Source of the DNA: an uncultured Ruminiclostridium sp.
GTDB taxonomy: Bacteria; Bacillota; Clostridia; Oscillospirales; Ruminococcaceae
Assembly: GCA_944386545.1 (NCBI GenBank)
Contig: CALXBK010000003.1
Coordinates: 41,436 to 105,435, forward strand
Length of the DNA stretch: 64,000 bases
Reading direction: 5' to 3'
The notes beneath the pieces are model-generated. The model was given only the letters and a program-made list of their open reading frames with translations. It was not told where the DNA came from and searched no databases. Shown piece after piece: positions 7,325 through 60,903 of this stretch (its first letter is position 1; each line of letters begins with the position of its first letter). A program made the translations under genes and the position numbers.

Positions 7325-9322
7325 ATGAAATCAAAAACAAAACAGAAAACCATAGCCGGACGAATAATAAGGGCAATGACTTCGGTTACGATAGGCGCAC
7401 TTGCAATTGCAACCGTAACTGCTGTTGCGGCTATATATATCTCCGCAACAAGGCTGACTGAGCAGTCGTTTAATGAGACTGCCGAGCTTGCTGCGGCAAG
7501 AGTACAGTGGGAGCTTCAGTCCATGCTCAATATCTCCATTGAAATGGGCGCAGATTCCCAGATGTCCTCCATCGGCTTCAGCAAAGAGCAGCGTCAGGCA
7601 AGAGTGGATGAGGCGGTCAAGATCTTCGGACTTGACAGAGGTACGATTATTGCCGCTGACGGTACAGCGACAAACGGCAACAGCTATTCCGACAGAGAGT
7701 ATTTCCAGAGAGCGCTCAAGGGCCAAACAACCATTACAGAGCCGCTGATCGGAAAGACAACGGGTGAGCTCAGCACCATCATTGCCGCCCCTTTGTGGAA
7801 AAACGGCGAGATTGGCGGCACGGTTGACGGCTGTGTATACATAGTCCCCGACACCGAGTTTATGAACGACATTGTGCGTGACATTAATGTCAGCGCAAAC
7901 GGCAACGCTTATATCGTCGGCAAATCCGGCAAGATTATAGCTCATCCCGACACCCAGTCCGCAAAGAATCAGATCAATGTACAGGAGCTTGCCGAAAAGG
8001 ATCCTACTTATGCCTCTCTTGCAGAGCAGCATGCAAAAATGGTCGACGGCAACAGCGGCTTCGGTACTTTCTCAAACGCCGGAATTGATTATTTCATAGG
8101 CTACGCTCCCATTGAAGGAACAGACGGCTGGACAGTTGTAATAACTGCTCCGAAGGATGATTTCACCGGTACGGCGAACGATTCGTTTCTTGTGCTTTGC
8201 ATAATTTCGATTGCCGCGGCTATCCTTGCAGTTATTACCGCGACGCTCATCGGCAAGAGAATAGGCGCTCCCATAAAGCTTTGCGCACAGCGCATTGAAA
8301 AGCTCGCAGAGGGCGACCTCACAAGCGAAGTGCCTGTTATCAATACAAAGGATGAAACCAAAATTCTTGCCCGCTCAACCCAGGTTGTAGTTGAAGAGCA
8401 GAAGAAGATGATCAACGATATCGGTTACATTCTGAGCAGTATGGCAGAGGGCAACTTTGCAGTTGACAGCGCCGATGCCAAGAACCTTTACAAAGGCGAC
8501 TACAAGGTGCTTATTGACGCCGTTATAGACATCAACCGCAAGCTAAATGACACCCTCACTCAGATTAATATTGCAGGCGAGCAGGTTTCAAGCGGTTCCG
8601 AACAGGTATCCGCAGGCGCTCAGTCGCTTGCACAGGGCGCAACAGAGCAGGCGGCTTCCGTTGAAGAGCTTGCAGGCGCAATTCACAATATTTCCGACCG
8701 CATCGAAGCTACCGCAAACGAGTGCAGAAACGGTAACGAGCTTGTAAACGAAACCTCCGAGTACTTTGAAGCGGCAAACGAAAAGATGCGCAGCCTGACA
8801 AAGGCAATGCAGGAGATAAACGACGCCTCTACCGAGATAGGCAAGATTATTCAGACTATCGAGGATATTGCCTTCCAGACCAACATTCTTGCGCTTAACG
8901 CCGCAGTAGAGGCGGCAAGAGTAGGCGAAGCGGGCAAGGGCTTTGCAGTTGTAGCAGACGAGGTGCGTAACCTTGCCGGCAAGTCCGCAGAGGCGGCGCA
9001 TGACACTACCGTGCTTATCGAAAGAGCAGTACAGGCGGTTGAAAACGGCAGCAACATAACCCTCGAAACCGCCGACGCAGTAAATCAGGTTGAGGCAAGA
9101 CTTGACGGCGTAAGCAATGTTGTAAAGAAGATTGCCGCCGCAAGCAACGAGCAGGCAGATATGGTAAAGCAGGTAAATACCGGAGTAGAGCAGATTTCCA
9201 ACGTAGTGCAGACAAACTCCGCTACCGCAGAAGAAAGCGCGGCGGCGTCCGAGGAGCTTTCCGCACAGGCGCTTATGCTCCAGAAGCTCGTCGGAAGCTT
9301 TACCTTCAGAGAGGGAGAATAA
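7325..9322 (+). CDS. Methyl-accepting chemotaxis protein (dCache-type sensor, HAMP, MCP signalling domain)
   Basis: It has an N-terminal TM, a periplasmic Cache-like region, a second TM and a HAMP region. The highly conserved MCP hairpin tip is present ([37 protein letters not shown]). Confidence 0.93.
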
Positions 9323-49363: not shown

Positions 49364-50626
49364 TTATACAATGTAATACGCCCTTGCGCCGTGAGGCTCT
49401 ATGGTCGCTTTTAGTTCATTTGCATTGTCGGTGGTTTCCTTGCTCCACAGTTCCTTTATTTTTGCACTGCCGTAAAGTTCAAGGTCGGTAAGCGGAACGC
49501 TTATCTGCGAGCATTGCTCACCCGTGTTGAACAGCGCCGCATAAATGCCGCCGTCCGCACAGGAGGCAGTCCAGAGGATATGCTCGGTGCCGTTTATTTC
49601 ACGCCGCCACACCTGATGAGAATTTCTCGCTTTAAGGTGCATATTGAGAATATCCTCGTTTGTGATAAGGCTCATTGTAAAATCGTCAAAGGTGGTCATC
49701 TCGCCGCCGATAATAAGGGGAGAACGGAAAATGCACCACAGCGTCATCATAGTATATTGCTCAGGCTGGGTAAATTTTGTGCGGTTTGCCGTGTCGTAAT
49801 CCTGCAAAATTCCGCCGATGGGGAGCATATCAGCGTCCGGCCAGCCGCCCGCACCGGTGTGTGTACACCACTTTTCCGCACGGGAGAACATATCGTAAAG
49901 CAGCTCCCACTTATCCCAGAAATCGTCCGTTATTCTCCACATATTTGAAACCTGCTTGTAAAGCTCCGCCTTTTCAAGCAGCGCAGGTCCGGGAGAAAGG
50001 CTGAGCACCATATCCCTGCCGCAGCTTTTAAGGGAATTACTGAGCGTAATAAGCTCCTCTTGCTCGTGGGGGAGCTCTCTTGCTATATCGTCGCACTTGA
50101 TGAAGTCCACGCCCCAGGAAGCGTATAGCTCAAAAATGCTGTCGTAATATTCCCTTGCGCCGGGCTTTTTGGTATCAACGCCGTACATATCGGAGTTCCA
50201 GCGGCAGATGCTGTCCGTCTTTGCTATCTCGCGGGCAGTTTTGTCACACCCTTTGATTGCGGTATTTCTGTGTACCGCCCGGCGGGGTATTCCTCTCATT
50301 ATATGTATGCCGAATTTAAGCCCCAGAGAGTGAACATACTCTGCAAGCGGCGCAAAGCCTTTTCCCCCTGCCGACGAGGGAAAACGGTTTTCTGCGGGTA
50401 TAAGACGGGAATACTCGTCCATGCAAAGGTCTGCAAACGGCTCGTACTCGTGATTTTTTGCATTGGGTGCGCTCCACTGAATGTCAACGGTCACATATTC
50501 CCAGCCGTACTTTTTCAGGTGCTTTGCTATAAACTCCGCGTTTTTGCGTACAGTCTGCTCGTCTACCGCCGCGCCGTAGCAGTCCCAGCTGTTCCAGCCC
50601 ATAGGCGCTCTTTTTAAAATATCCAT
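49364..50626 (-). CDS. Alpha-galactosidase, glycoside hydrolase family 27-like
   Basis: The N-terminus PMGWNSWDCYG is a GH27 hallmark, and ..DFIKCDDI.. marks the catalytic region. Confidence 0.8.
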   Translation of the reverse strand: MDILKRAPMGWNSWDCYGAAVDEQTVRKNAEFIAKHLKKYGWEYVTVDIQWSAPNAKNHEYEPFADLCMDEYSRLIPAENRFPSSAGGKGFAPLAEYVHSLGLKFGIHIMRGIPRRAVHRNTAIKGCDKTAREIAKTDSICRWNSDMYGVDTKKPGAREYYDSIFELYASWGVDFIKCDDIARELPHEQEELITLSNSLKSCGRDMVLSLSPGPALLEKAELYKQVSNMWRITDDFWDKWELLYDMFSRAEKWCTHTGAGGWPDADMLPIGGILQDYDTANRTKFTQPEQYTMMTLWCIFRSPLIIGGEMTTFDDFTMSLITNEDILNMHLKARNSHQVWRREINGTEHILWTASCADGGIYAALFNTGEQCSQISVPLTDLELYGSAKIKELWSKETTDNANELKATIEPHGARAYYIV

Positions 50627-50703: not shown

Positions 50704-53265
50704 CTAAGAAAAGACTCCGAACTTGCTCCTTATTCTTATGCACCTGCATATCAGCGGCTCGCCTATTATCAGCAAAAACGCCGCAGACGAGCAGGCGTGA
50801 ATAACGTCAAGCGGAAGCCCCGCCATTACATAAGCCGCAACGGATTCAAGGCTTATCTGCGGAAGGTACATAAACGCCGAGGAAATGTTCATAATCCCGC
50901 CGTACAGCACGATTGCCGAGATAAAGGCATAAACGCTCATCAGCGCAAGATTGCCCCGATTCTTGAATATCACGCCCGCAAAAAAGCCGACCAGTCCCAT
51001 AGCGAGCATTTGCCAGGGCGTCCACATTCCTTGCCCGAACAGCATATTTGAAGCGAGCATACTTACCGCCCCTACCATAAAGCCGCTTTGCGCTCCGAGC
51101 GCCGCACCGCTTATTATGGCTATCGCCGCAACGGGCTTGAACTGCGGAAGCATGAAGAAAATCTGCCGTCCCGCAACTGCCGCCGCACACAGCGCCGCTA
51201 TCATCGCTATTTCAATCGCCTTTGGCTTTTTTTGCTCAAAGGAGATGAAAAATGCGGCTAAGCATTCAAGCAAAATCAGCACGGATATGATAAGGAGCTT
51301 TCTTTCTCCGCTTATATACATTGTGCCGAATACGGCGGTAAAGGGTATTGCAATCAGCGTTACAAAAGCCGCCGTAATATCCGATATGCGAGGCGGACGT
51401 TTTTGCCTGCCTTTAAAAGATTTAAAGGACGGAGCAGAGCCGAATATAAGCAGTATCACGGGCAGACAAAGCAGTATATACGGCAAAAAAGCGGGACTTG
51501 CGGGGAGCTTCAGCGGAGTTATCCCCGTGCTTAAAAGCAGTACCGCTGCAAGCGTTATCCCGCCCGAAATCAGGCACGCCTTACGAAGCGGCGGCAGCCT
51601 TTTCTTTTTTTCGGCAGCAGCTTTTGTGCCGCCGTTATATTTACCGTCTGAATATTTTTTAAAATCTGTCTTTTCGGGAGTGTACCCTGCCGTCTGCAAA
51701 AGCTGAGGGAGCTTATATACGCCCTCGACCTTGCCGCAGGCAATTTTTGCGCTGTCGGTGGTAAAAAATTCGTTTGCCTCAAAAAACCTTGCCGCAGGCA
51801 GGCTGACGGTTATCGCACCGTCAAACAGCAGCATACATTCGTCTGCATTTTCCGCGCAGAAGTCCATATCATGGCTTACAATCACAACGGTCTTATTTTC
51901 CGATTTAAGACAGGACAAAAGCTGTGACAGCTCCTGCTTTCTTGCGGCGTCCATGCCCTTTGTAGGCTCATCAAGCAGAAAAATATCCGCACCCTTTGCG
52001 TACAGCTTTGCTATTGCCGCACGCTGACGTTCTCCGCCCGACAAGTCAAGCGCATTGCGTGACAGAAGATGCGACAGCCCGAAAAGCTCCGCCGTTTTTT
52101 TGGTATCGGAGCTTACCGATAAAAGCTCCTCGTAAAGCGTATCATGGCAAAACAGCAAAGCGGGGTTCTGCGGCAGGTAGCCGACCGCCCCTGCAAGCTC
52201 CTTTTCGGTGTTTATTTTAATACTGCCTCTCTGGAGCTTTTCCGTCTTTGCAATAATCGACAGCAGGGTGGATTTTCCTGCCGCATTGCCACCCATTATC
52301 GCAGTTATACCTCCGTGTATTTTTAAAGAGAGGTTTTTCAGTATATCCTCTCCGTCCCTTTCATAGCGGAAAAATACGTTTTTAAGCTCCACTACGGTAT
52401 CGTTGCTTTCCAACGGTAAATCCTTATCAAACGGCTTAGCTCCCTCTTTTTCAATGTGCTGCGAGTACCAGTCCCTTGCAGAAGGTATATCAAAAAGCGG
52501 TGACGGATTATTTGCCGCCGCAGACAGCCTTACTCCTGCGGGCATTTCGCAAAGCATGGAATGAGCAGATTTTGCAAGGCAGGATACAAGCTTGGCCGCA
52601 GTGCCGTCGCAGAGTATTTCTCCTTTGTCAAGCAGTATCGCTCTTTTGCACACGCTAAGCAGTAAATTGAGGTGGTGCTCCGCTATCACGACCGTTACGC
52701 CAAGCTCTGAATTAATGCGGGAAAGCAAAGCGACAAACTCAGCCGAGGCTATCGGAGAAAGCTGGGACAGCGGCTCGTCAAGCAATATTATATCGGGCTT
52801 TGCAACCATCACGGAGGCTAAAGCTACCGTTTGCTTCTGCCCGCCCGAAAGCTGTGATATTTTACGGCTCATCAGCTGTTCCAGACCGAAAAACAGAGAA
52901 ATCTGCGCTATACGGCTTCTCATGCGGCTGTTGTCCATACCGACGCTTTCTGCGGCAAAGGCAAGCTCTGCGCCGACGGTATCGCATACGCACTGCTCGT
53001 CGGGGAGCTGGGACACAAACCCTATTTTTTCGGCGTTGTATTCGCCTTTTTGCGATTTTTCTCCGAAAAGAAATATCTCACCATCGTATTCTCCCGCCCC
53101 GGGCAACGCCTTTATACAGCCAAGCAGGGTGGATTTGCCGCTTCCGGAGCTTCCGCACAGGACGATAAATTCCCCCCTGTTAATATTAAGATTTATGCTT
53201 TTAAGGCTGTGGCTGTCGGTATCGGAATAGCGGTAACAAAAACCGTCAAGCCTTATTTGCTCCAT
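50704..53265 (-). CDS. ECF transporter triple fusion: EcfA + EcfA' ATPases + C-terminal S-component-like membrane domain
   Basis: Two ABC cassettes are present (GSSGSGKST/LSGGQKQ/ILLDEP and GGNAAGKST/LSGGERQ/FLLDEP). After a lysine-rich linker comes about 300 aa with at least 6 hydrophobic helices (..GQGMWTPWQMLAMGLVGFFAG..). Confidence 0.85.
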   Translation of the reverse strand: MEQIRLDGFCYRYSDTDSHSLKSINLNINRGEFIVLCGSSGSGKSTLLGCIKALPGAGEYDGEIFLFGEKSQKGEYNAEKIGFVSQLPDEQCVCDTVGAELAFAAESVGMDNSRMRSRIAQISLFFGLEQLMSRKISQLSGGQKQTVALASVMVAKPDIILLDEPLSQLSPIASAEFVALLSRINSELGVTVVIAEHHLNLLLSVCKRAILLDKGEILCDGTAAKLVSCLAKSAHSMLCEMPAGVRLSAAANNPSPLFDIPSARDWYSQHIEKEGAKPFDKDLPLESNDTVVELKNVFFRYERDGEDILKNLSLKIHGGITAIMGGNAAGKSTLLSIIAKTEKLQRGSIKINTEKELAGAVGYLPQNPALLFCHDTLYEELLSVSSDTKKTAELFGLSHLLSRNALDLSGGERQRAAIAKLYAKGADIFLLDEPTKGMDAARKQELSQLLSCLKSENKTVVIVSHDMDFCAENADECMLLFDGAITVSLPAARFFEANEFFTTDSAKIACGKVEGVYKLPQLLQTAGYTPEKTDFKKYSDGKYNGGTKAAAEKKKRLPPLRKACLISGGITLAAVLLLSTGITPLKLPASPAFLPYILLCLPVILLIFGSAPSFKSFKGRQKRPPRISDITAAFVTLIAIPFTAVFGTMYISGERKLLIISVLILLECLAAFFISFEQKKPKAIEIAMIAALCAAAVAGRQIFFMLPQFKPVAAIAIISGAALGAQSGFMVGAVSMLASNMLFGQGMWTPWQMLAMGLVGFFAGVIFKNRGNLALMSVYAFISAIVLYGGIMNISSAFMYLPQISLESVAAYVMAGLPLDVIHACSSAAFLLIIGEPLICRCIRIRSKFGVFS

Positions 53266-54127
53266 GGCTTCTCCTCCATTTTATTTCATCGTAAAGCGTT
53301 ATACCGCAGGGTATCAGACAAAATGCTCCCCACAGCAAAAGCGCTGGTATTCCCAAAGCGTCGGTATGCACTTTAAAGACGGGGTAATAGCCGTAGGAAA
53401 GCAGTCCCGTACAAAACGCCGATACCGTTGCCGCAACGCACAAAAGGGTAAGCGTGACAACGGCAAAATCCCTTTTTGTAAAGCGGTACACGCTGTAAAA
53501 GCTGCGCTTTGTACTGCCGTAGCCCCTGTACTTCATGCTTTGTGCGGTATATCCCGCATTTTCAAGAGAGGCGGAGAGTGCGACCGAGGTGATTTTAAGC
53601 ACAGCCCTGAGCTTATTTTTTACCCCCTTGCCGTTTATATCACAGCCGAGGAATTTCTGCGCCGCCGCAGTTTCCTTAAATCTCTTTGCAAAGTAAGGAA
53701 TAAACCGCATGGTCATTGAAATAAGCAGTCCCAGCGACGGGAACGTCCTGCCGAAAAGATACATAAGCTTATCCGAGCCAAAACAGCTTCCTGTTGTAAA
53801 TAGCCACAGCACAAGCGCTGTCATCATAAAAAAGGCAAACGCCGAATAAATCGCGGTTTCAAGCGTTACTGCGTTGCCGCACGACAGCCTTATCAGCACA
53901 GTCTGCCCCTCGTTATTGAAAAGGAGATTAACAGCCGTGCCGAAAATGCAGACAAGCACAGCCGACAGCACCGCCTTGCCGCTTATCTTTCCGCATTTTC
54001 CGAGCAGCACAAAAAGCAACGCCGAAAAAAAGGATATAAGCAGGACAAGCGGATGCTGTACCGCCGCAGTTATAATTATCACCGCCGCATAAAAGCAAAA
54101 AGCGGAAAAAGGGTGTAGCGCCTTCAT
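53246..54127 (-). CDS. ECF transporter transmembrane (T) component, EcfT/CbiQ family
   Basis: A multi-TM protein of 293 aa with an EcfT/CbiQ-like layout. Its stop overlaps the start of the ATPase gene by 20 nt. Confidence 0.8.
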   Translation of the reverse strand: MKALHPFSAFCFYAAVIIITAAVQHPLVLLISFFSALLFVLLGKCGKISGKAVLSAVLVCIFGTAVNLLFNNEGQTVLIRLSCGNAVTLETAIYSAFAFFMMTALVLWLFTTGSCFGSDKLMYLFGRTFPSLGLLISMTMRFIPYFAKRFKETAAAQKFLGCDINGKGVKNKLRAVLKITSVALSASLENAGYTAQSMKYRGYGSTKRSFYSVYRFTKRDFAVVTLTLLCVAATVSAFCTGLLSYGYYPVFKVHTDALGIPALLLWGAFCLIPCGITLYDEIKWRRSHGANKA

Positions 54128-54819
54128 TGATAATCAGCTCCGTAGTTGCAGGTATAGGTAAAGGTGATTTTATCGTTGTTTTGCGGCTTATAGGCGTCAC
54201 AGCTGACTGACAGCACCTCGCCGTTTACCGAAAACAGCCAGCCTGAGCCACTCCCGCAGTCAAACTCGTAAATGCCCGCAATGCCCTCGATATAACATAC
54301 CGAAAAGGCGGGAGATACGGAATATTCAAGCTGTATGTCATTTTCGCCGCACAGCCTTACAAGTATGTCAAAAACAGCGTCGCCCTCATCAAAGCCGACG
54401 GTATCATCAAAGATAACTCCGTTTTCGGGCAGTATTCCGAGCTTGTTTTTATCAAAGCCGTCAAGGTTGTCAAGTATTGTACCGCACTCTATGACAAAGT
54501 GACATTCCGAGTTATATCGGTGTATATCGTTTTGAACCGCCGGAGTTGTCGTTGTATCTGAAGCAGCGGTCTGCTCCGTTATTTCGGGTGCAGAGGTCTG
54601 CTCTGCCGTTTCGGGTGATGAGGTCTGCTCTGTCTGTATGTCAGCGGCAGAAGTCTGCTCCGTAATTGTTGCGGATGAATCGGGCGGCTGTACCCTGCTA
54701 TCGCTTGACGATGCGCCGTTATCTCCCGATGAGCTTAGCATAACCGCCGCTGTAAGAACGGCAATTATCAGAACAAATAACAGCAGTATATATTTGTATT
54801 TATCTAAAAAATGCTTCAT
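54124..54819 (-). CDS. Membrane-tethered DUF4430-domain protein (transcobalamin beta-domain-like)
   Basis: It has an N-terminal TM anchor and a low-complexity (T)EQTS-rich linker. The C-terminal DUF4430 signature is ..GSGSGWLFSVNGEVLSVSCDAYKPQNNDKITFTY. Confidence 0.8.
   Translation of the reverse strand: MKHFLDKYKYILLLFVLIIAVLTAAVMLSSSGDNGASSSDSRVQPPDSSATITEQTSAADIQTEQTSSPETAEQTSAPEITEQTAASDTTTTPAVQNDIHRYNSECHFVIECGTILDNLDGFDKNKLGILPENGVIFDDTVGFDEGDAVFDILVRLCGENDIQLEYSVSPAFSVCYIEGIAGIYEFDCGSGSGWLFSVNGEVLSVSCDAYKPQNNDKITFTYTCNYGADYQ
54566..54673. repeat. Imperfect ~27-nt tandem repeats (x4) encoding the EQTS-rich linker
   Basis: The (A/C)GGTCTGCTC core recurs three times at about 27-nt spacing, with a fourth degenerate copy (AAGTCTGCTC), inside the coding sequence. 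Confidence 0.6.
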
Positions 54820-54820
54820 A

Positions 54821-56770
54821 TTATTTCTTTCTTCGTTTTATAAAGGCTGTCAGCACAGCCGCCGCAGAGATTATAACGACAGCGCCGCAAGCCGTCCTTA
54901 CACCCGTGGGCGGATTTTCCTTATTGCCGCTGTCGCCCACGGTGCTGTCGGAAACGGTTATATCCATATCATAAAGTGAATTTCCGTCCTTGCTTAAATC
55001 ATACGCTGTCACAGCAAGCAATGCCTGCTGTGTGGCAAGGGCGTTTACCTCTCCGTTTTGCAGATGTGTAAAACCGCCCTCGGTATAGTAAGAGCAAAGC
55101 GATATAACGGGAGAGATACCGTTTTTGACAAAGCGTGCGTCATTCATATCGGCAGATACGGCAGACATCGCTATTATAAGCTGTGACAGGCTTTCGCTTC
55201 CCGTGGTATAGCGGCAGTTATCGTCAAGTCCGTTACTAAGCACCGCCAGCGCCGCTTCAACAGCTTCATTTGCCCTTTCGTTCTTCATATAGGGAGCAAG
55301 CGCCTGTACCGCCATTGCGGTAATGTCATAATCCGCCCTGTCGCCCATAAGCGCCCAGCCGCCGTCGGGAGTTCTGCAATCAAGCAAATCAGAAACCAGT
55401 TTTTCACGGCAGCCTGCGTTGTAATCGGTGCAGTCAAATGCGATAAGCGCAAAAATTTTCGCCATAAGTCCCTGCTTGTTTATAAAGTCATAATCGTCAA
55501 GACCTTTTAAGAGGTTGCGTCCTGCAACATCGGCAGGATTTTTGCCCATAGCGCAAAGTGCGATTATCACTCTTGCGTTGTCGGTCGCCTTGTGCGAAAT
55601 TCTGCCGTTTTCGATATTGAGAAGCGCCTTTTCAAGCTCGGAGTAATATTTTTCAGCCGTATTTTCGGGCAGTACGCCTGCTCTTGCAAGGGCTGTGATA
55701 TACCATTCTCCGCCTGTTTCGGCAAGGGGTACGATTTCGCTTTCAAGGGCGGCCTCGAGCATTTCTGCGTAAATCTCGCCAACGCGGCTTTCATCGGCAA
55801 GCAGCTTTATAATTTCGGCATATTTTTCTTCTGAATAAAACAGCGTCTGTGCGTTTGTCACCCTTGCTTTAAGCTCATCAAACAGCTCGTCATAAGCGTT
55901 TCTTGCCGCTGTTATCTTTTCACCGCTGTCGGCAGTCACCTCTCCGATTTGCGCTATAAGGGCAATCACATTGCTTACCCTTTTGCTGTCGGCGGCTGTA
56001 TCCTCTCCGTTATTATCGGAAACTGTTACCGTATAGATATTATCCCCGCCTACCGTTACGGTAATGACATCACCGTCGGAAAGCGTTTCGGGACGGGAGA
56101 TTTTAAGCGTTTTATCGCCTGTTGTGCTTTTTACTTCAAACGCCTTGTTGAGCGCTATGGGGCGGAATGTTACCTCGCTTGTCTTTTCGGGTATAACAAG
56201 GGTATATTCCTTTACATCTGCCGAAAATTCGGGAGAAAGCTCGCCGCCGCTTATCTCAAAATTTTTAAGGCTCTTGTCCGTGCCGCTCCAGTCATAACCG
56301 AGGTCTGCACCCCAGCTTAAGGAATACATCATTCTTATCTCGTCACCGTCGGCGAGCTTGCCGTTCTGTACGGTGTAGGCGGATAATGCTTCCGAGGTAA
56401 ACCAGTCGTTAAGCGTGCCCATCCAGCCGCTCATGTCGCCGCCGTCACCTGCGCCAAGTCCGCATAGCTCGGTTATATATCCCGTGTCTGCGCCTGTTAC
56501 GGTTTGTCCCGCCTGCGTGGCTGCGTCTGCAACAACATTCAGTCCGTTGCTGTCATCATCAAGAGTTACCCACTCGTCAACCTTTACGCCTGTCCAGAGC
56601 GGAGCGTTACCGTTTGTATCTGCGGTAAAGGTGCTGTTTTCGATTATTACACGCACCTTGCCTGCGTTATTCTCGGCAAACACCGAAACGCCGATGTAGG
56701 GCAGTGCGGCTGTCAGCAATGAAGCGGAGAGTACCGCCGCTGTCACCTTTTTTAAAATTTCCTTAATCAT
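54821..56770 (-). CDS. Sortase-anchored surface protein: signal peptide + DUF4430 + cadherin-like beta-sandwich + alpha/alpha-toroid (prenyltransferase/squalene-oxidase-repeat-like) domain
   Basis: Signal peptide: MIKEILKKVTAAVLSASLLTAALP. DUF4430: ..MSGWMGTLNDWF..KLADGDEIRMMYS. Cadherin-like domain: LKNFEISGGELSPEFSADVKEYTL. Toroid repeats: ..GGEWYITALARAG.., ..TPDGGWALMG..YDITAMAVQAL... C-terminal sorting signal: NPPTG, a hydrophobic stretch, then KRRKK. I set the start at the ATG at 56770 after AGGAGGAACAA. Confidence 0.8.
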   Translation of the reverse strand: MIKEILKKVTAAVLSASLLTAALPYIGVSVFAENNAGKVRVIIENSTFTADTNGNAPLWTGVKVDEWVTLDDDSNGLNVVADAATQAGQTVTGADTGYITELCGLGAGDGGDMSGWMGTLNDWFTSEALSAYTVQNGKLADGDEIRMMYSLSWGADLGYDWSGTDKSLKNFEISGGELSPEFSADVKEYTLVIPEKTSEVTFRPIALNKAFEVKSTTGDKTLKISRPETLSDGDVITVTVGGDNIYTVTVSDNNGEDTAADSKRVSNVIALIAQIGEVTADSGEKITAARNAYDELFDELKARVTNAQTLFYSEEKYAEIIKLLADESRVGEIYAEMLEAALESEIVPLAETGGEWYITALARAGVLPENTAEKYYSELEKALLNIENGRISHKATDNARVIIALCAMGKNPADVAGRNLLKGLDDYDFINKQGLMAKIFALIAFDCTDYNAGCREKLVSDLLDCRTPDGGWALMGDRADYDITAMAVQALAPYMKNERANEAVEAALAVLSNGLDDNCRYTTGSESLSQLIIAMSAVSADMNDARFVKNGISPVISLCSYYTEGGFTHLQNGEVNALATQQALLAVTAYDLSKDGNSLYDMDITVSDSTVGDSGNKENPPTGVRTACGAVVIISAAAVLTAFIKRRKK

Positions 56771-57005
56771 TTGTTCCTCCTGCTTGCTTTTCAAGTCTTT
56801 TTGCCTGTTTGCGCCTTTTTTCAGCCCGCTTTCTTTTAAGGCGGGATTTTTCCTTTGAGGAAATTTCGGGCGGCTCTTTAAGCCCCGCCGCCTCCAACGC
56901 TCTGGGCCACGGACCTAACTTTTGCTTTATAAAGCACGCCTCGTCCGGCTCAAAGTCAGAGCGCACAGGCAGTCGTCCCGTCTGCTCCCGTTTTTCCCTG
57001 AGCAT
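56763..57005 (-). CDS. Small basic protein with one 'homing-endonuclease-associated repeat'-like helix-turn motif; first ORF of the riboswitch-controlled operon
   Basis: The translation ..REKREQTGRLPVRSDFEPDEACFIKQKLGPWPRALEAAGL.. is followed by a Lys/Arg-rich tail. Its stop overlaps the next gene's start (ATGATTAA). The 5' end is uncertain (see findings). Confidence 0.5.
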   Translation of the reverse strand: MLREKREQTGRLPVRSDFEPDEACFIKQKLGPWPRALEAAGLKEPPEISSKEKSRLKRKRAEKRRKQAKRLEKQAGGTND

Positions 57006-57049
57006 AAAAACGGCTTTTTCGTATTTTTCGTCCGTGCTGTTCCCTCCCT

Positions 57050-57084
57050 TCAAAAATAAAGACCCACGCCTTAAAGCGTGGGTG
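57050..57084 (-). terminator. Riboswitch expression-platform terminator
   Basis: On the minus strand ACCCACGC-tttaag-GCGTGGGT is followed by CTTTATTTTTG. Confidence 0.75.
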
Positions 57085-57188
57085 TTACAACCGTTTTTGT
57101 ACAGCAAAGCCAAACCGTGCCCCGAAAAGCACAGTTTACTTTGAGTCAAAGCGGCTGTACATCTTCCTCGTCCAAGGCACATAACCGG

Positions 57189-57304
57189 AAAATACGGGGG
57201 TATTCTGACTTATGAGCGCTGCTCAATCACAGTAATGACGGTTGTTACGGATTTTCACCGTATTCCCTGTTACCTACCGGGCATAGCCTTTCGAGCCGTA
57301 TTTT
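57189..57304 (-). promoter_or_regulatory. Cobalamin (B12) riboswitch aptamer, compact form
   Basis: On the minus strand the P1 stem is AAATACGG...CCGTATTT. The conserved core AGGGAAUACGGUGAAAAUCCGUA, ..ACUGU.. and the B12 box AAGUCAGAAUACC are all present. Confidence 0.85.
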
Positions 57305-57324
57305 CTGATATTCAGTTTCTTTAG

Positions 57325-57353
57325 AGTGTAGCACATTTTTTTGAAAAAAGCAA
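57325..57353 (-). promoter_or_regulatory. Promoter of the riboswitch-controlled operon
   Basis: On the minus strand TTGCTT-17 nt-TACACT, with an extended -10 (TGcTACACT). Confidence 0.5.
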
Positions 57354-57453: not shown

Positions 57454-60400
57454 GTGAAACATAACGGTACTATTTTATTCAACGACAACTGGCTTTTTGC
57501 GCTCACTGCGCCCGACAGTGATATTTCCGCGCTTGGAAACGCAAACTGGTATAATGTCAAACTTCCCGCAGACTGGCTTATAAACGATACCGCAAGGCTT
57601 TACGAATCGGGCTGCGGCTGGTATAAAAAAAGCTTTGCCGCTTCTGCCCCTGCTGAAAATGAGGCTTGCTTCATCTGCTTTGACGGCGTGTACATGGATA
57701 CAACCGTTTATGTCAACGGCAAAAAGGCGGGAGAATGGAAATACGGCTATACCTCCTTTTACTTTGACATAACACGGCTTGTTACAGACGGAGAGAACGA
57801 AATACTCGTCAGAGTAAACCACAAATCCCCAAACAGCCGCTGGTACAGCGGTGCGGGAATTTTCCGCAACGTGTACCTCAGGCGCACATCAGCCTGCCAT
57901 ATTCAGCAGGACGGAATTTACATCAGCACAAAGCGCAGAGCCTCAAAGGAGGACGAGCCTGCCGACAGATGGAAGGTATCGGTCGCCGTACAATTTAACC
58001 GCAATATCTGCGGCACGGCAATTTACACGGTTAAAAATCCCGATGGTACGGAGCTTTTATCGCTTGAATGCAGAATATGCGGCGACAGCGACAAGCAAAA
58101 GCTGTACCTTGCCGATCCTATGCTCTGGGATACCGAAAATCCGCACCTGTACGGTCTTGAGGTGGTTATCAAGGACGATACGGGCAAGGTGCTTGACAGC
58201 GCAAGCGATACATTCGGACTGAGAAAAGTGGAATTTACCAGAGATAAAAGGCTGCTCCTAAACGGCAAGTCCACCCCGATTAAGGGCGTTTGTATGCACC
58301 ATGATTTGGGTGCGCTGGGTGCGGCGGTAAATTACGACGCAACGCGCAGACAGCTTTGCATACTGAAGGAATACGGCGTAAATGCCGTGCGTACAAGCCA
58401 CAACCCTCCGTCAAGAGAGCTGCTGAAGCTTTGCGACGAGATGGGTATTCTTGTCAACGATGAAATCTTCGATATGTGGGAGATTGCAAAAACGGAGTAT
58501 GACTACGCCCGCTTTTTTGACAAGTGGTACAAGACTGATGTTGCCGCCTGGATAAAGCGCGACAGAAATCACCCCTGCGTAATAATGTGGAGCGTCGGCA
58601 ACGAAATCCCCGACACCCATAAGAGCCAAAGAGGCGCGGAGATTACAAGAAAGCTGAAAAACGCCGTGCTTGAATACGATCCCCTTAAAAACGCACATTG
58701 CACCATAGCGTCAAACTATATGCAGTGGGAAAATGCACAGAAGTGCGCCGACGAGCTGAAATTAGCAGGCTACAACTACGCCGAACGGCTTTATAAAGAG
58801 CACAGCGAGCAGTACCCCGACTGGTATATCTACGGAAGCGAAACCGCTTCAACGGTGCGTTCAAGAGGTATTTACCACTTCCCGTTTGACGCACCGAGGC
58901 TTGTCTGCGAGGATATGCAGTGCTCCGACCTTGGCAACTCGGTCGTAAACTGGGGCGCTTCTCCCGAACGCTCATTCATTGACGACAGGGACAGCGTTTC
59001 AATGGGACAGTTTGTATGGACGGGCTTTGACTATATCGGCGAGCCTACTCCGTACAGCACCAAAAACTCCTATTTCGGAATTGTGGATACGGCAGGCTTT
59101 GCAAAGGACGCCTTCTACTTCTACAAATCCGTATGGGACAGCAAGGCAGAGCCGTTTGTGCATATAGTTCCTACATACTGGGATTTTAACGACGGTCAGC
59201 TTATAGACGTCATCGTCTACACCAACACAAGCGCAGTAGGGCTGTTTGTCGATAATGAGCAGTACGGCGAAATCCGGCCCGTAAGCAGACAAAGCGGCGA
59301 AAATATTTTTGCGCATTTTATCGTTCCGTATAAAAAGGGCTCTGCGATAAAGGCAAGGGGCTATGACGAAAACGGCAGGGAAATTGCCTGCGATAAAAGA
59401 GAAAGCTACAAGGGCGAGCCTGTATGCCTTGTTTTAAAGCGTGATTATCCCGATGCCGACAAGGCTGTTGCGGCAGACGGCACTTCTTTGGTATTCTTTG
59501 AGATTACCGCCGAGGACGAAAACGGCAACGCAGTTCTTAACGCAAACAACAGAGTAAGGCTGACGGTAGGCGGCCCTGCAAGGCTTGTCGGACTTGACAA
59601 CGGCGACAGCACCGATTATGACAGCTACAAGGGCGACAACCGCAGACTGTTCTCAGGCAGACTGCTTGCAATAATTCAGACAACAGCAAAAGCGGGTACG
59701 GTCACGGTAAAGGCGGAAAGCATCGGTCTGACACCGGCAGAGGCCGCATTTGATACCGTACCCTGCGAAATACCTGAGGGCGTAAGCGTTGAAGCGGAAA
59801 ATCCCTTCCCCTCGGCGCAGACGGAATATACAAACGAAATTCCGATAAGAAAAATCGAGCTTTTCTGCGACGGCGGGAAAACGCTCACTCCCGAAAACAA
59901 GCTTGTAAAGGTAGGATACAAAATTCTGCCCGAAAACGCAACCTACAACGATATAGAATTTATCTGCATCAGTCAGACGGGCAACCAGACAAACAACGCC
60001 GCAGTAGCTTCATCCGACAAGGAAAGCGTAACGGTGGAGGGACTGGGCGACGGACAGTTCAGATTAAGAGCCTTTGCCAAAAACGGAAGCGATATTCCCA
60101 AGGTGCTGTCCGAGCTTGAAATGGAAGTGCAGGGCATGGGACAGGCGCAGAAAAATCCTTATGAATTTATTTCCGCGAGCCTGTACGATTATTCAAGCAA
60201 GCCCGTATCCGTTATTGAAAGAGGCGCTTTGGGCGGTTTTGACGGCAGAACAATAATCGGCTTTAAGTCGGTGGATTTCTCTCTTGCGGGAGCGCAGGGC
60301 GTTACGCTTTCAATCGGCAACTGCACAGGCTCTGACGTAAGAGTTGATATGTACCTCGACGCCCCCGACGGAGAACACGCAGGCAGCTTTGACTTTGCCG

Positions 60401-60903
60401 ACAACAACGGCTGGGACAGAGGCTATCCCGTTTCCTACTCTCTCCCCCGCATTATCAAGGGTATGCACGACATATTCTTTAAAATGGATATGGGCTGTAT
60501 CTTCAGCGGCATACAGTTTGAAGAATACGACAAGGCTTACAGCCGTATTTCCGCCGCAGACAACGACGGAGTTTACGGCGACGATTTCGCGGTAAACAAC
60601 GGCAGAGTAGAAAAGATAGGCAACAATGTTGTGCTTGAATTTAAATCAATGAATTTCAAGGATGGCACTGACAAAATAACCGTTGTCGGCAAAACTTCGC
60701 TTGACAGCTGTACCGTTCAGCTTCGCTTCACCGATGAAAACGGAGCTCAGACAGCGCAGGCGATAGAGTTCCCGCACAGCGAGGAATACACAGAGCACAG
60801 CTTCACTATCGAAAAGGTAAGCGGCAGACAGGACGTAAGCTTTATCTTCCTGCCTGGCTCAAAATTCGACTTTGACAGCTTTGAGTTCATACGCTGTGAA
60901 TAA
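57454..60903 (+). CDS. Glycoside hydrolase family 2 enzyme (beta-galactosidase-like) with C-terminal Ig-like and carbohydrate-binding-like domains
   Basis: The GH2 sugar-binding, Ig and TIM-barrel order is present, with VRTSHNPPS and NHPCVIMWSVGNEI (acid/base region). The protein is 1149 aa and uses a GTG start. Confidence 0.85.
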   Translation: MKHNGTILFNDNWLFALTAPDSDISALGNANWYNVKLPADWLINDTARLYESGCGWYKKSFAASAPAENEACFICFDGVYMDTTVYVNGKKAGEWKYGYTSFYFDITRLVTDGENEILVRVNHKSPNSRWYSGAGIFRNVYLRRTSACHIQQDGIYISTKRRASKEDEPADRWKVSVAVQFNRNICGTAIYTVKNPDGTELLSLECRICGDSDKQKLYLADPMLWDTENPHLYGLEVVIKDDTGKVLDSASDTFGLRKVEFTRDKRLLLNGKSTPIKGVCMHHDLGALGAAVNYDATRRQLCILKEYGVNAVRTSHNPPSRELLKLCDEMGILVNDEIFDMWEIAKTEYDYARFFDKWYKTDVAAWIKRDRNHPCVIMWSVGNEIPDTHKSQRGAEITRKLKNAVLEYDPLKNAHCTIASNYMQWENAQKCADELKLAGYNYAERLYKEHSEQYPDWYIYGSETASTVRSRGIYHFPFDAPRLVCEDMQCSDLGNSVVNWGASPERSFIDDRDSVSMGQFVWTGFDYIGEPTPYSTKNSYFGIVDTAGFAKDAFYFYKSVWDSKAEPFVHIVPTYWDFNDGQLIDVIVYTNTSAVGLFVDNEQYGEIRPVSRQSGENIFAHFIVPYKKGSAIKARGYDENGREIACDKRESYKGEPVCLVLKRDYPDADKAVAADGTSLVFFEITAEDENGNAVLNANNRVRLTVGGPARLVGLDNGDSTDYDSYKGDNRRLFSGRLLAIIQTTAKAGTVTVKAESIGLTPAEAAFDTVPCEIPEGVSVEAENPFPSAQTEYTNEIPIRKIELFCDGGKTLTPENKLVKVGYKILPENATYNDIEFICISQTGNQTNNAAVASSDKESVTVEGLGDGQFRLRAFAKNGSDIPKVLSELEMEVQGMGQAQKNPYEFISASLYDYSSKPVSVIERGALGGFDGRTIIGFKSVDFSLAGAQGVTLSIGNCTGSDVRVDMYLDAPDGEHAGSFDFADNNGWDRGYPVSYSLPRIIKGMHDIFFKMDMGCIFSGIQFEEYDKAYSRISAADNDGVYGDDFAVNNGRVEKIGNNVVLEFKSMNFKDGTDKITVVGKTSLDSCTVQLRFTDENGAQTAQAIEFPHSEEYTEHSFTIEKVSGRQDVSFIFLPGSKFDFDSFEFIRCE

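Follow-up and report, generated by a model that had tools for sequence, protein, structure and literature searches.

The DNA analysed here is a 64,000-nucleotide (nt) window from the genome of an uncultured Ruminiclostridium sp., and its region 50704-57353 (minus strand; all coordinates are those of the window) carries an operon in which a cobalamin riboswitch precedes genes for an energy-coupling factor (ECF) transporter and for two extracytoplasmic proteins with DUF4430 domains. Five co-directional and tightly coupled minus-strand genes lie 3′ of the riboswitch and a terminator, in the order small HNH_repeat protein, 649-amino-acid (aa) surface protein, 231-aa DUF4430 protein, EcfT and EcfA-EcfA′-S fusion (853 aa). 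An earlier reading of the letters alone (the original prediction) had counted six genes in this region, one more than it contains, and had located four gene junctions, every one of which is exact in the sequence. The stop of the first gene overlaps the start of the 649-aa gene (ATGATTAA at 56763-56770), the 649-aa and 231-aa genes are separated by a 1-nt gap at 54820 (TAA-T-ATG at 54823-54817), the 231-aa and EcfT genes share ATGA at 54127-54124, and the EcfT and 853-aa genes overlap by 20 nt (53246-53265). These junctions demonstrate translational coupling across the five operon genes.

The leader of the operon had been expected to hold a promoter, a cobalamin riboswitch and an intrinsic terminator, and the latter two were clearly found. 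The riboswitch aptamer (57178-57316, minus strand) matches RF00174 over the full model (1-189) with 46.7 bits (gathering threshold 31.5, E 1.5e-8) and is the single cobalamin riboswitch detected by the Rfam scan in the entire window. It belongs to a short form of the aptamer: the variable region, 62 nt long in the Rfam model, has only 8 nt here. The expression platform, located ~95 nt 3′ of the aptamer, is an intrinsic terminator (57052-57083 including its tail, minus strand) with a 9-bp stem (six of the pairs GC), a loop of four nt and CTTTATTTTT as its tail; the hairpin, ACCCACGCC/GGCGTGGGT followed by a T-run, occupies 57083-57062 (minus strand) and is present in the minimum-free-energy fold of the leader (z of -4.3 against shuffled sequences). 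As for the promoter, only a candidate site could be read by eye (57325-57353, minus strand), with a TTGCTT -35 box (57353-57348), a spacing of 17 nt and a TGcTACACT extended -10 box (57330-57325). It matches the consensus weakly (3/6 and 4/6 positions) and falls below the threshold of the promoter scanner, which reported none; it weakly suggests that transcription starts just 5′ of the aptamer. Terminator-type B12 riboswitches usually switch genes OFF, and from this usual behaviour the terminator is predicted to act here as an OFF switch when B12 is bound.

The last two genes specify the transporter, and the EcfT and EcfA-EcfA′-S fusion that had been proposed were both found. EcfT (53246-54127, minus strand) belongs to a dedicated ECF module and matches PF02361 (CbiQ) with 33.3 bits for a cut-off of 25. 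In the 853-aa fusion, residues ~1-520 (51706-53265, minus strand) comprise the EcfA and EcfA′ ATPase domains, with two PF00005 (ABC_tran) matches at 169 bits; TIGR04520 (263 bits) and TIGR04521 (249 bits) are the best NCBIfam matches and are below their equivalog cut-offs, as expected of a fusion. The membrane part (50704-51705, minus strand) contains four extra transmembrane helices predicted by hydropathy (residues ~560-675) and a CbrT-like S domain (~681-853; PF07155, 33 bits), whose only significant sequence match in the PDB is 6fnp_A, the CbrT subunit of ECF-CbrT (E 1.3e-7, residues 13-177 of 182). The fusion is kept in related operons, with products of 875-884 aa. The extra helices (51240-51590, minus strand) follow the second ATPase domain and precede the CbrT-like core, and their even number keeps the topology of the S domain normal. 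A cobalt transporter of the CbiMNQO type was considered and rejected, there being no CbiM or CbiN and the S domain being CbrT-like; the CbiQ name in Pfam is generic.

The ECF-CbrT transporter of Lactobacillus delbrueckii (6FNP) takes up cobalamin and cobinamide in an ATP-dependent manner, with hemin being no competitor (Santos et al. 2018, PMC5997447). The present transporter resembles it in its S domain, which aligns over nearly the full length, in the combination of EcfT with two EcfA-type ATPase domains and in its predicted substrates, cobalamin and cobinamide. It differs in several respects. CbrT of L. delbrueckii is a solitary S-component that uses the shared general (group II) module and is encoded in an nrdJ-cbrS-cbrT-pduO cluster (PMC5997447), whereas the present module is a dedicated one, with A, A′ and S joined in a single polypeptide that has the four additional helices, and the genes stand under a B12 riboswitch together with those of two extracytoplasmic proteins. 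Because the S domain is CbrT-like and the operon lies behind a B12 riboswitch, the assignment of the transporter as a corrinoid importer is well supported, and judged by sequence features it is very probably a B12-regulated importer of the CbrT type.

The two extracytoplasmic proteins are the less familiar part of the operon. The 231-aa protein (54124-54819, minus strand) fits the membrane-tethered DUF4430 protein on an EQTS linker that had been described: a transmembrane helix (residues 11-29) is followed by a linker of ~70 residues, which is rich in S, T, A, Q and E and contains the repeat (E)QTS according to hydropathy and composition, and by a domain resembling the transcobalamin beta domain (~104-231), which matches PF14478 with 66 bits for a gathering threshold of 23.8. 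In the AlphaFold2 model of this stand-alone domain (predicted local distance difference test, pLDDT, 91.6; predicted TM-score, pTM, 0.86), each of the top 17 Foldseek matches in the PDB is a beta domain from transcobalamin, intrinsic factor or haptocorrin, with E between 1e-5 and 1e-4. Among them is 5np4, in which the beta domain was crystallised in isolation together with cyanocobalamin, and TM-scores to the isolated human beta domain range from 0.74 to 0.76 (0.76 to 5no0). The next match is 3u7z, an uncharacterised DUF4430 structure from R. gnavus, after which none has an E below 0.1. On the evidence of the model, the match of the stand-alone DUF4430 to the beta domains of B12 carriers is specific. 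Searches of PDB chains with the 649-aa and 231-aa sequences gave nothing significant and a search of the PDB with the DUF4430 family profile gave matches to the low-complexity linker only, so that the relation between DUF4430 and transcobalamin is seen only at the fold and Pfam level.

Two side observations concern this domain. Five or six cysteines are conserved in the stand-alone DUF4430 (C12, C18, C94, C113 and C130 in domain numbering; 54127-54537, minus strand) and are missing in the toroid-fused DUF4430 of the 649-aa protein; disulfides, a metal site or a ligand to cobalt are conceivable roles for them. The only DUF4430 structure from a bacterium, the R. gnavus entry 3u7z, bears the title 'putative metal binding protein'.

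The 649-aa protein (54821-56770, minus strand) was dissected by means of Pfam, an AlphaFold2 model, Foldseek, hhalign and its sorting signal. It consists of a signal peptide (residues 1-32, with the helix at 2-22 and a likely cleavage at VFA|E), a DUF4430 domain resembling the transcobalamin beta domain (~38-150), a cadherin-like immunoglobulin (Ig) sandwich (~168-258), a helical stalk of 85 residues (259-343), an alpha/alpha toroid (355-593), a disordered spacer and a sorting signal made of NPPTG (619-623), 18 hydrophobic residues and KRRKK. This succession of signal peptide, [LN]PxTG motif, hydrophobic segment and basic tail fits the pattern of sortase-anchored proteins; the Rumino_NPXTG model NF033846 gives 18.7 bits, below its cut-off of 23.5. 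In the window, no sortase gene and no other sortase substrates were found, the one TLxTC match being in an implausible open reading frame. The fused DUF4430 scores 23.6 bits with PF14478, just under the cut-off of 23.8, and aligns with the stand-alone DUF4430 family in hhalign with a probability of 99.1% (E 1.4e-18), and the cadherin-like sandwich scores 24.6 bits for a cut-off of 24.2. All domains that the original prediction had assigned to this protein (signal peptide, DUF4430, cadherin-like sandwich, toroid and NPPTG signal) are upheld by Pfam, hhalign, the model or the motif. In the AlphaFold2 model, built with 43 homologues (mean pLDDT 87.3), the top Foldseek match is transcobalamin (7qbe_C), with an E of 7.4e-5 and a TM-score of 0.50 normalised to transcobalamin over 303 columns.

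Relatives of the toroid protein were sought in one genome per species, with a 14-sequence toroid-protein alignment as query (a 43-sequence alignment was too divergent), and were found in at least 591 species-representative genomes. The locus analyses that follow concern the best 80 of these at least 591 relatives, nearly all of which are Clostridia (Ruminococcus, Oscillospiraceae, Acutalibacteraceae and Lachnospiraceae), including the cultured Ruminococcus bromii ATCC 27255. With Rfam, RF00174 was found upstream and on the same strand in seven of eight loci. An operon-specific covariance model, built from eight aptamers of related loci, located an aptamer upstream in 42 of the 80 loci, always on the gene strand and usually 110-300 nt 5′ of the first operon gene, and an aptamer is also present in all three further loci, those of members of the small-protein family. 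The order toroid protein, DUF4430, EcfT, A, A′, S was recovered by tblastn with the window proteins in 33 of the 54 loci that have at least 7 kb of downstream sequence. The cassette is thus co-inherited with B12 riboswitches, and the survey of Clostridia for such co-occurrence, which the original prediction had suggested, ended in its favour, as did each of its other computational checks that was run.

Riboswitches of the short subclass (variable region of ~8 nt) reach only 33-54 bits with RF00174, and this subclass is therefore probably under-annotated. In R. bromii ATCC 27255, the aptamer (7720-7858, plus strand, of locus L053) is missed by Rfam at the gathering threshold and scores 87.7 bits with the operon-specific model; the toroid protein of this strain looks dockerin-bearing in a crude motif match. 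At four other loci (L012, L022, L046 and L057), the toroid gene is not followed by the DUF4430-EcfT-AA′-S genes, which run divergently from it on the other strand.

Taken as a whole, the operon is probably best read as encoding a B12-repressed, dedicated (group I) importer of the ECF-CbrT type with an extracytoplasmic capture module. When corrinoids are scarce, the terminator would remain unformed and the five coupled genes would be expressed, a direction that follows the usual habit of such riboswitches. EcfT and the EcfA-EcfA′-S fusion would then constitute the transporter, whose CbrT-like S domain would carry cobalamin or cobinamide inward at the cost of ATP, these substrates being suggested by CbrT and by the riboswitch. 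The 649-aa protein would be secreted and linked by a sortase to peptidoglycan through NPPTG, with its Ig-like domain and helical stalk holding DUF4430 and toroid off the membrane, and the 231-aa protein would present a second DUF4430 on its flexible linker of ~70 residues from a one-helix membrane anchor. A corrinoid might be clamped between toroid and DUF4430, as between the alpha and beta domains of transcobalamin, and then passed inward to the S domain, with the membrane-tethered DUF4430 serving the toroid as beta partner or working as a shuttle. That the surface proteins capture corrinoids is somewhat better than an even chance, and the order in which the ligand would be handed off is speculative.

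Several observations count against this reading and are weighed here together with the alternatives to which they belong. The first group concerns the toroid. In the Foldseek search, for which the original prediction had named transcobalamin as a target, transcobalamin is indeed the top match, but drimenyl-diphosphate synthase, other class II terpene cyclases and prenyltransferases trail it by only a few-fold (E ~1e-4 for the cyclases) and match in effect equally well. The family profile of the toroid matches squalene-hopene cyclase (SHC; E 2e-13) and relatives (~1e-13) in the PDB and no chain of transcobalamin, intrinsic factor or haptocorrin. A domain search with Pfam had been proposed to look for DUF4430 and for Cobalamin_bind (PF01122) or prenyltransferase-like matches; DUF4430 is present in both extracytoplasmic proteins and PF01122 is absent from both at E ≤ 0.01. 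Moreover, the order in the 649-aa protein, beta first and toroid last, with the Ig-like domain and the 85-residue stalk in between, is the reverse of that in transcobalamin, and the pTM of the 649-aa model is only 0.59, which bears on the packing between domains. Compared with mammalian transcobalamin, intrinsic factor and haptocorrin, the likeness resides in the fold of the beta domain and in the superposition of the toroid on the alpha domain of transcobalamin, and the differences, apart from domain order and the missing PF01122, are that the toroid is SHC- and prenyltransferase-like by sequence and that the protein is cell-anchored, whereas the carriers are soluble. In the idea that the wall-anchored protein supplies both halves of a transcobalamin-like site, the putative beta half is backed by the fold of DUF4430, and the alpha half is weaker than had been stated, the toroid matching transcobalamin no more specifically than it matches the cyclases.

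These matches raise the possibility that the toroid is an enzyme, a binder of a ligand other than a corrinoid (a terpenoid, a lipid or a cell-wall component) or an alpha2-macroglobulin-TED-like domain, in which case only the DUF4430 proteins would handle B12. Besides the profile matches to SHC and drimenyl-diphosphate synthase at E ~1e-13, such a role would account for the motif D480-x-D482-[I/M]-T-A (residues 480-484 at 55318-55332, minus strand), which aligns with DVDDTA of SHC and in which D482 is the only invariant column among the 43 aligned homologues. The catalytic DxDD is nevertheless not reproduced, the sequence being D-Y-D-I-T-A here and the third Asp being replaced by I or M throughout the family. 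The extracellular site, where no isoprenoid diphosphate substrate is obvious, also speaks against an enzyme, as do control by a B12 riboswitch, the fused or adjacent DUF4430 and transcobalamin as the top structural match, so that this alternative is quite unlikely. Since the 649-aa protein is extracellular, the conserved residues of the motif are more readily understood as putative ligand contacts than as catalytic.

The second group comes from the distribution of the toroid proteins. About 40% of the related toroid proteins have neither an ECF gene nor a riboswitch nearby in the available sequence, and 32 of 75 toroid open reading frames have no fused N-terminal DUF4430 (ten of these 32 are truncated where the contig ends). 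Much less variable is the separate DUF4430 gene, which occurs downstream in 33 of the 54 loci. With the fused domain often missing and the separate one kept, the constant core of the cassette amounts to the toroid protein, the separate DUF4430, EcfT and AA′-S. For the same reason, the separate DUF4430 may be the real beta partner of the toroid, and the fused DUF4430 an extra site that is not obligatory. The surface tethers of the toroid homologues vary as well (dockerin, SLH, CW_binding_2 and NPxTG), in agreement with a job outside the cell.

From the same facts it could be argued that the transporter imports B12 independently of the surface proteins, which would hoard corrinoids (sequestration or storage) or strip B12 from host or dietary binders with no relay to the membrane. 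Varied tethers, whether dockerin, SLH or sortase signals, and toroid homologues that lack an adjacent ECF would suit such a role, and ECF-CbrT is active in liposomes and in E. coli when no extracytoplasmic partner is present (PMC5997447). On the other hand, tight translational coupling and an order conserved with the ECF genes speak against such independence, and the membrane-tethered DUF4430 on its long linker resembles a shuttle. Hoarding or stripping in place of a relay is accordingly held to be rather unlikely, and capture for uptake by the ECF-CbrT-type importer is preferred.

The third group comes from the literature. No paper and no PDB entry (PDB to April 2026) was found in which a corrinoid is bound to a DUF4430 or toroid protein of bacteria, and heme uptake was reported for the one cluster of this composition that has been studied by experiment. 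This cluster, lsa1836-1840 of L. sakei, encodes ECF S, AA′ and T components together with two secreted proteins, one transcobalamin-beta-like and one alpha-like (Verplaetse et al., bioRxiv 10.1101/864751). Its deletion impaired heme accumulation and was complemented in trans, and its authors modelled heme between the alpha-like and beta-like proteins and proposed its hand-off to the S-component (10.1101/864751). They also stated that the cluster is automatically annotated as cobalamin transport (10.1101/864751). Matched by domain content as described in that paper, the parts list is the same as here, with a toroid that is GGTase/transcobalamin-alpha-like there, and so is the idea of capture between alpha and beta followed by hand-off. 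The claim of the original prediction that such a relay architecture had not been characterised in Firmicutes was for this reason overstated. The two systems differ in that heme is the reported ligand in L. sakei and that the paper mentions no riboswitch, in that alpha and beta are separate proteins there, whereas here one beta is fused to the toroid in a sortase-anchored protein and a second beta is membrane-tethered, and in that here S is part of one polypeptide with AA′ and the first operon gene encodes a small HNH_repeat protein.

Import of heme or another tetrapyrrole by the present system, as reported for L. sakei, would be the direct transfer of this precedent. A cobalamin riboswitch, however, controls the operon and its relatives, the S domain resembles CbrT, and hemin is no competitor for ECF-CbrT (PMC5997447), all of which makes it very improbable that heme, and not a corrinoid, is the ligand of the ECF-CbrT-type importer described here.

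Other surface capture systems provide further points of comparison. The sortase-anchored wall proteins of the Isd/NEAT relay in Gram-positives pass heme inward to an ABC-type importer. The likeness lies in the inward passage of a tetrapyrrole by sortase-anchored wall proteins, and the differences in the ligand, in the absence here of NEAT domains (Pfam) and, within the window, of a dedicated sortase, and in the importer, which is of the ECF type here, the Isd relay using a type II ABC importer that is served by a lipoprotein binder. BtuG and BtuH of Bacteroides are surface lipoproteins that bind corrinoids, belong to B12 uptake loci and work with BtuB (PMC8941943 and references therein). They are comparable as surface corrinoid binders that feed a membrane transporter from B12 uptake loci; there is no homology, and both envelope and transporter are of another type, theirs being TonB-dependent and located in a Gram-negative outer membrane.

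The first gene of the operon, which the original prediction had left undescribed, encodes a conserved small HNH_repeat protein of ~80-96 aa (56763-57053, minus strand), with a single HNH_repeat (PF18780, 28.8 bits), a K/R-rich tail and no signal peptide. It stands at the operon head in at least 19 of the 80 loci, and its family comprises at least 709 clusters with the near-invariant core CFIKQKLGPWPRALEAAGLK. All three family members examined (chosen for their long contigs) belong to the same five-gene operon, including the AA′-S fusion, behind a riboswitch, and the protein appears to be dedicated to this type of B12-ECF operon. A search of the PDB with the family profile gave no solved relative. 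From its sequence, the protein is a putative conserved cytoplasmic component. The start of the gene is peculiar, as it has no canonical start codon at the position where its homologues start. Three in-frame candidates are available: TTG at 57053-57051, which falls within the U-tract of the terminator; ACG at 57035-57033, preceded at six nt by a strong Shine-Dalgarno sequence (GGAGGG, 57047-57042); and the first ATG at 57005-57003, which would drop the first conserved helix. The gene may thus use a non-canonical ACG start or may be decaying.

In the flanks of the operon (GH2, alpha-galactosidase, ANTAR regulator and glutamate synthase genes), no Pfam family linked to B12 metabolism was found. 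The next gene on the same strand, directly downstream of the 853-aa gene, encodes an alpha-galactosidase (Melibiase_2, 49364-50626, minus strand). It was considered as an operon member and rejected on account of its unrelated function and of its own strong promoter-like site, which was reported by the promoter scan as near-consensus (TTGACA-17-TATATT with an upstream TG, 50685-50657, minus strand). A clear terminator was looked for 3′ of the 853-aa gene and none was found. On the other side, a divergent gene (57454-60903, plus strand) encodes a glycosidase of 1149 aa, placed in the GH2 family by the Pfam matches of contig L001, which is identical.

With respect to these precedents, an ECF-CbrT transporter with accessory transcobalamin-like proteins is not a categorically new system, and the notion of an extracytoplasmic accessory protein for CbrT-type transporters is already embedded in annotation. 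What is new is the explicit riboswitch control over a large clostridial family, the multidomain protein, wall-anchored or dockerin-bearing, in which DUF4430 and toroid are fused, the AA′-S fusion with its extra helices and the conserved small HNH_repeat gene. A literature search on transcobalamin-like proteins with a riboswitch, or on dockerin with a B12 riboswitch, returned nothing. The regulatory and transporter parts of the proposal are solid, and capture and relay are plausible.

The competition of Gram-positive gut anaerobes for scarce corrinoids is poorly understood, and a survey of gut genomes in 2019 called the identification of the B12 transport system in many of them 'an open problem' (PMC6593275). 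The cassette offers a directly testable answer to the question of how abundant Gram-positive gut anaerobes acquire B12. In its widest form, the proposal is that Clostridia of gut and rumen, among them R. bromii as a keystone degrader of starch, display a split or permuted bacterial transcobalamin at the wall or, through dockerins, on the cellulosome or amylosome, where toroid and DUF4430 would clamp the vitamin, and hand corrinoids to a fused ECF-CbrT transporter; this would be a Gram-positive counterpart of BtuG/BtuH and a plausible prokaryotic ancestor of the mammalian B12 carriers, with the small HNH_repeat protein as a new cytoplasmic component (for example a regulator or receiver). Such a comprehensive view is tentative, its chances being a little under even. 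If the surface proteins bind corrinoids, they would form the Gram-positive equivalent of the capture layer that BtuG/BtuH provide in Bacteroides. On the same condition, the heme assignment of the L. sakei cluster would be due for re-examination, a function would be found for DUF4430 and for a large set of 'prenyltransferase-like' surface and dockerin proteins, and a bacterial origin would be suggested for the two-domain design of transcobalamin.

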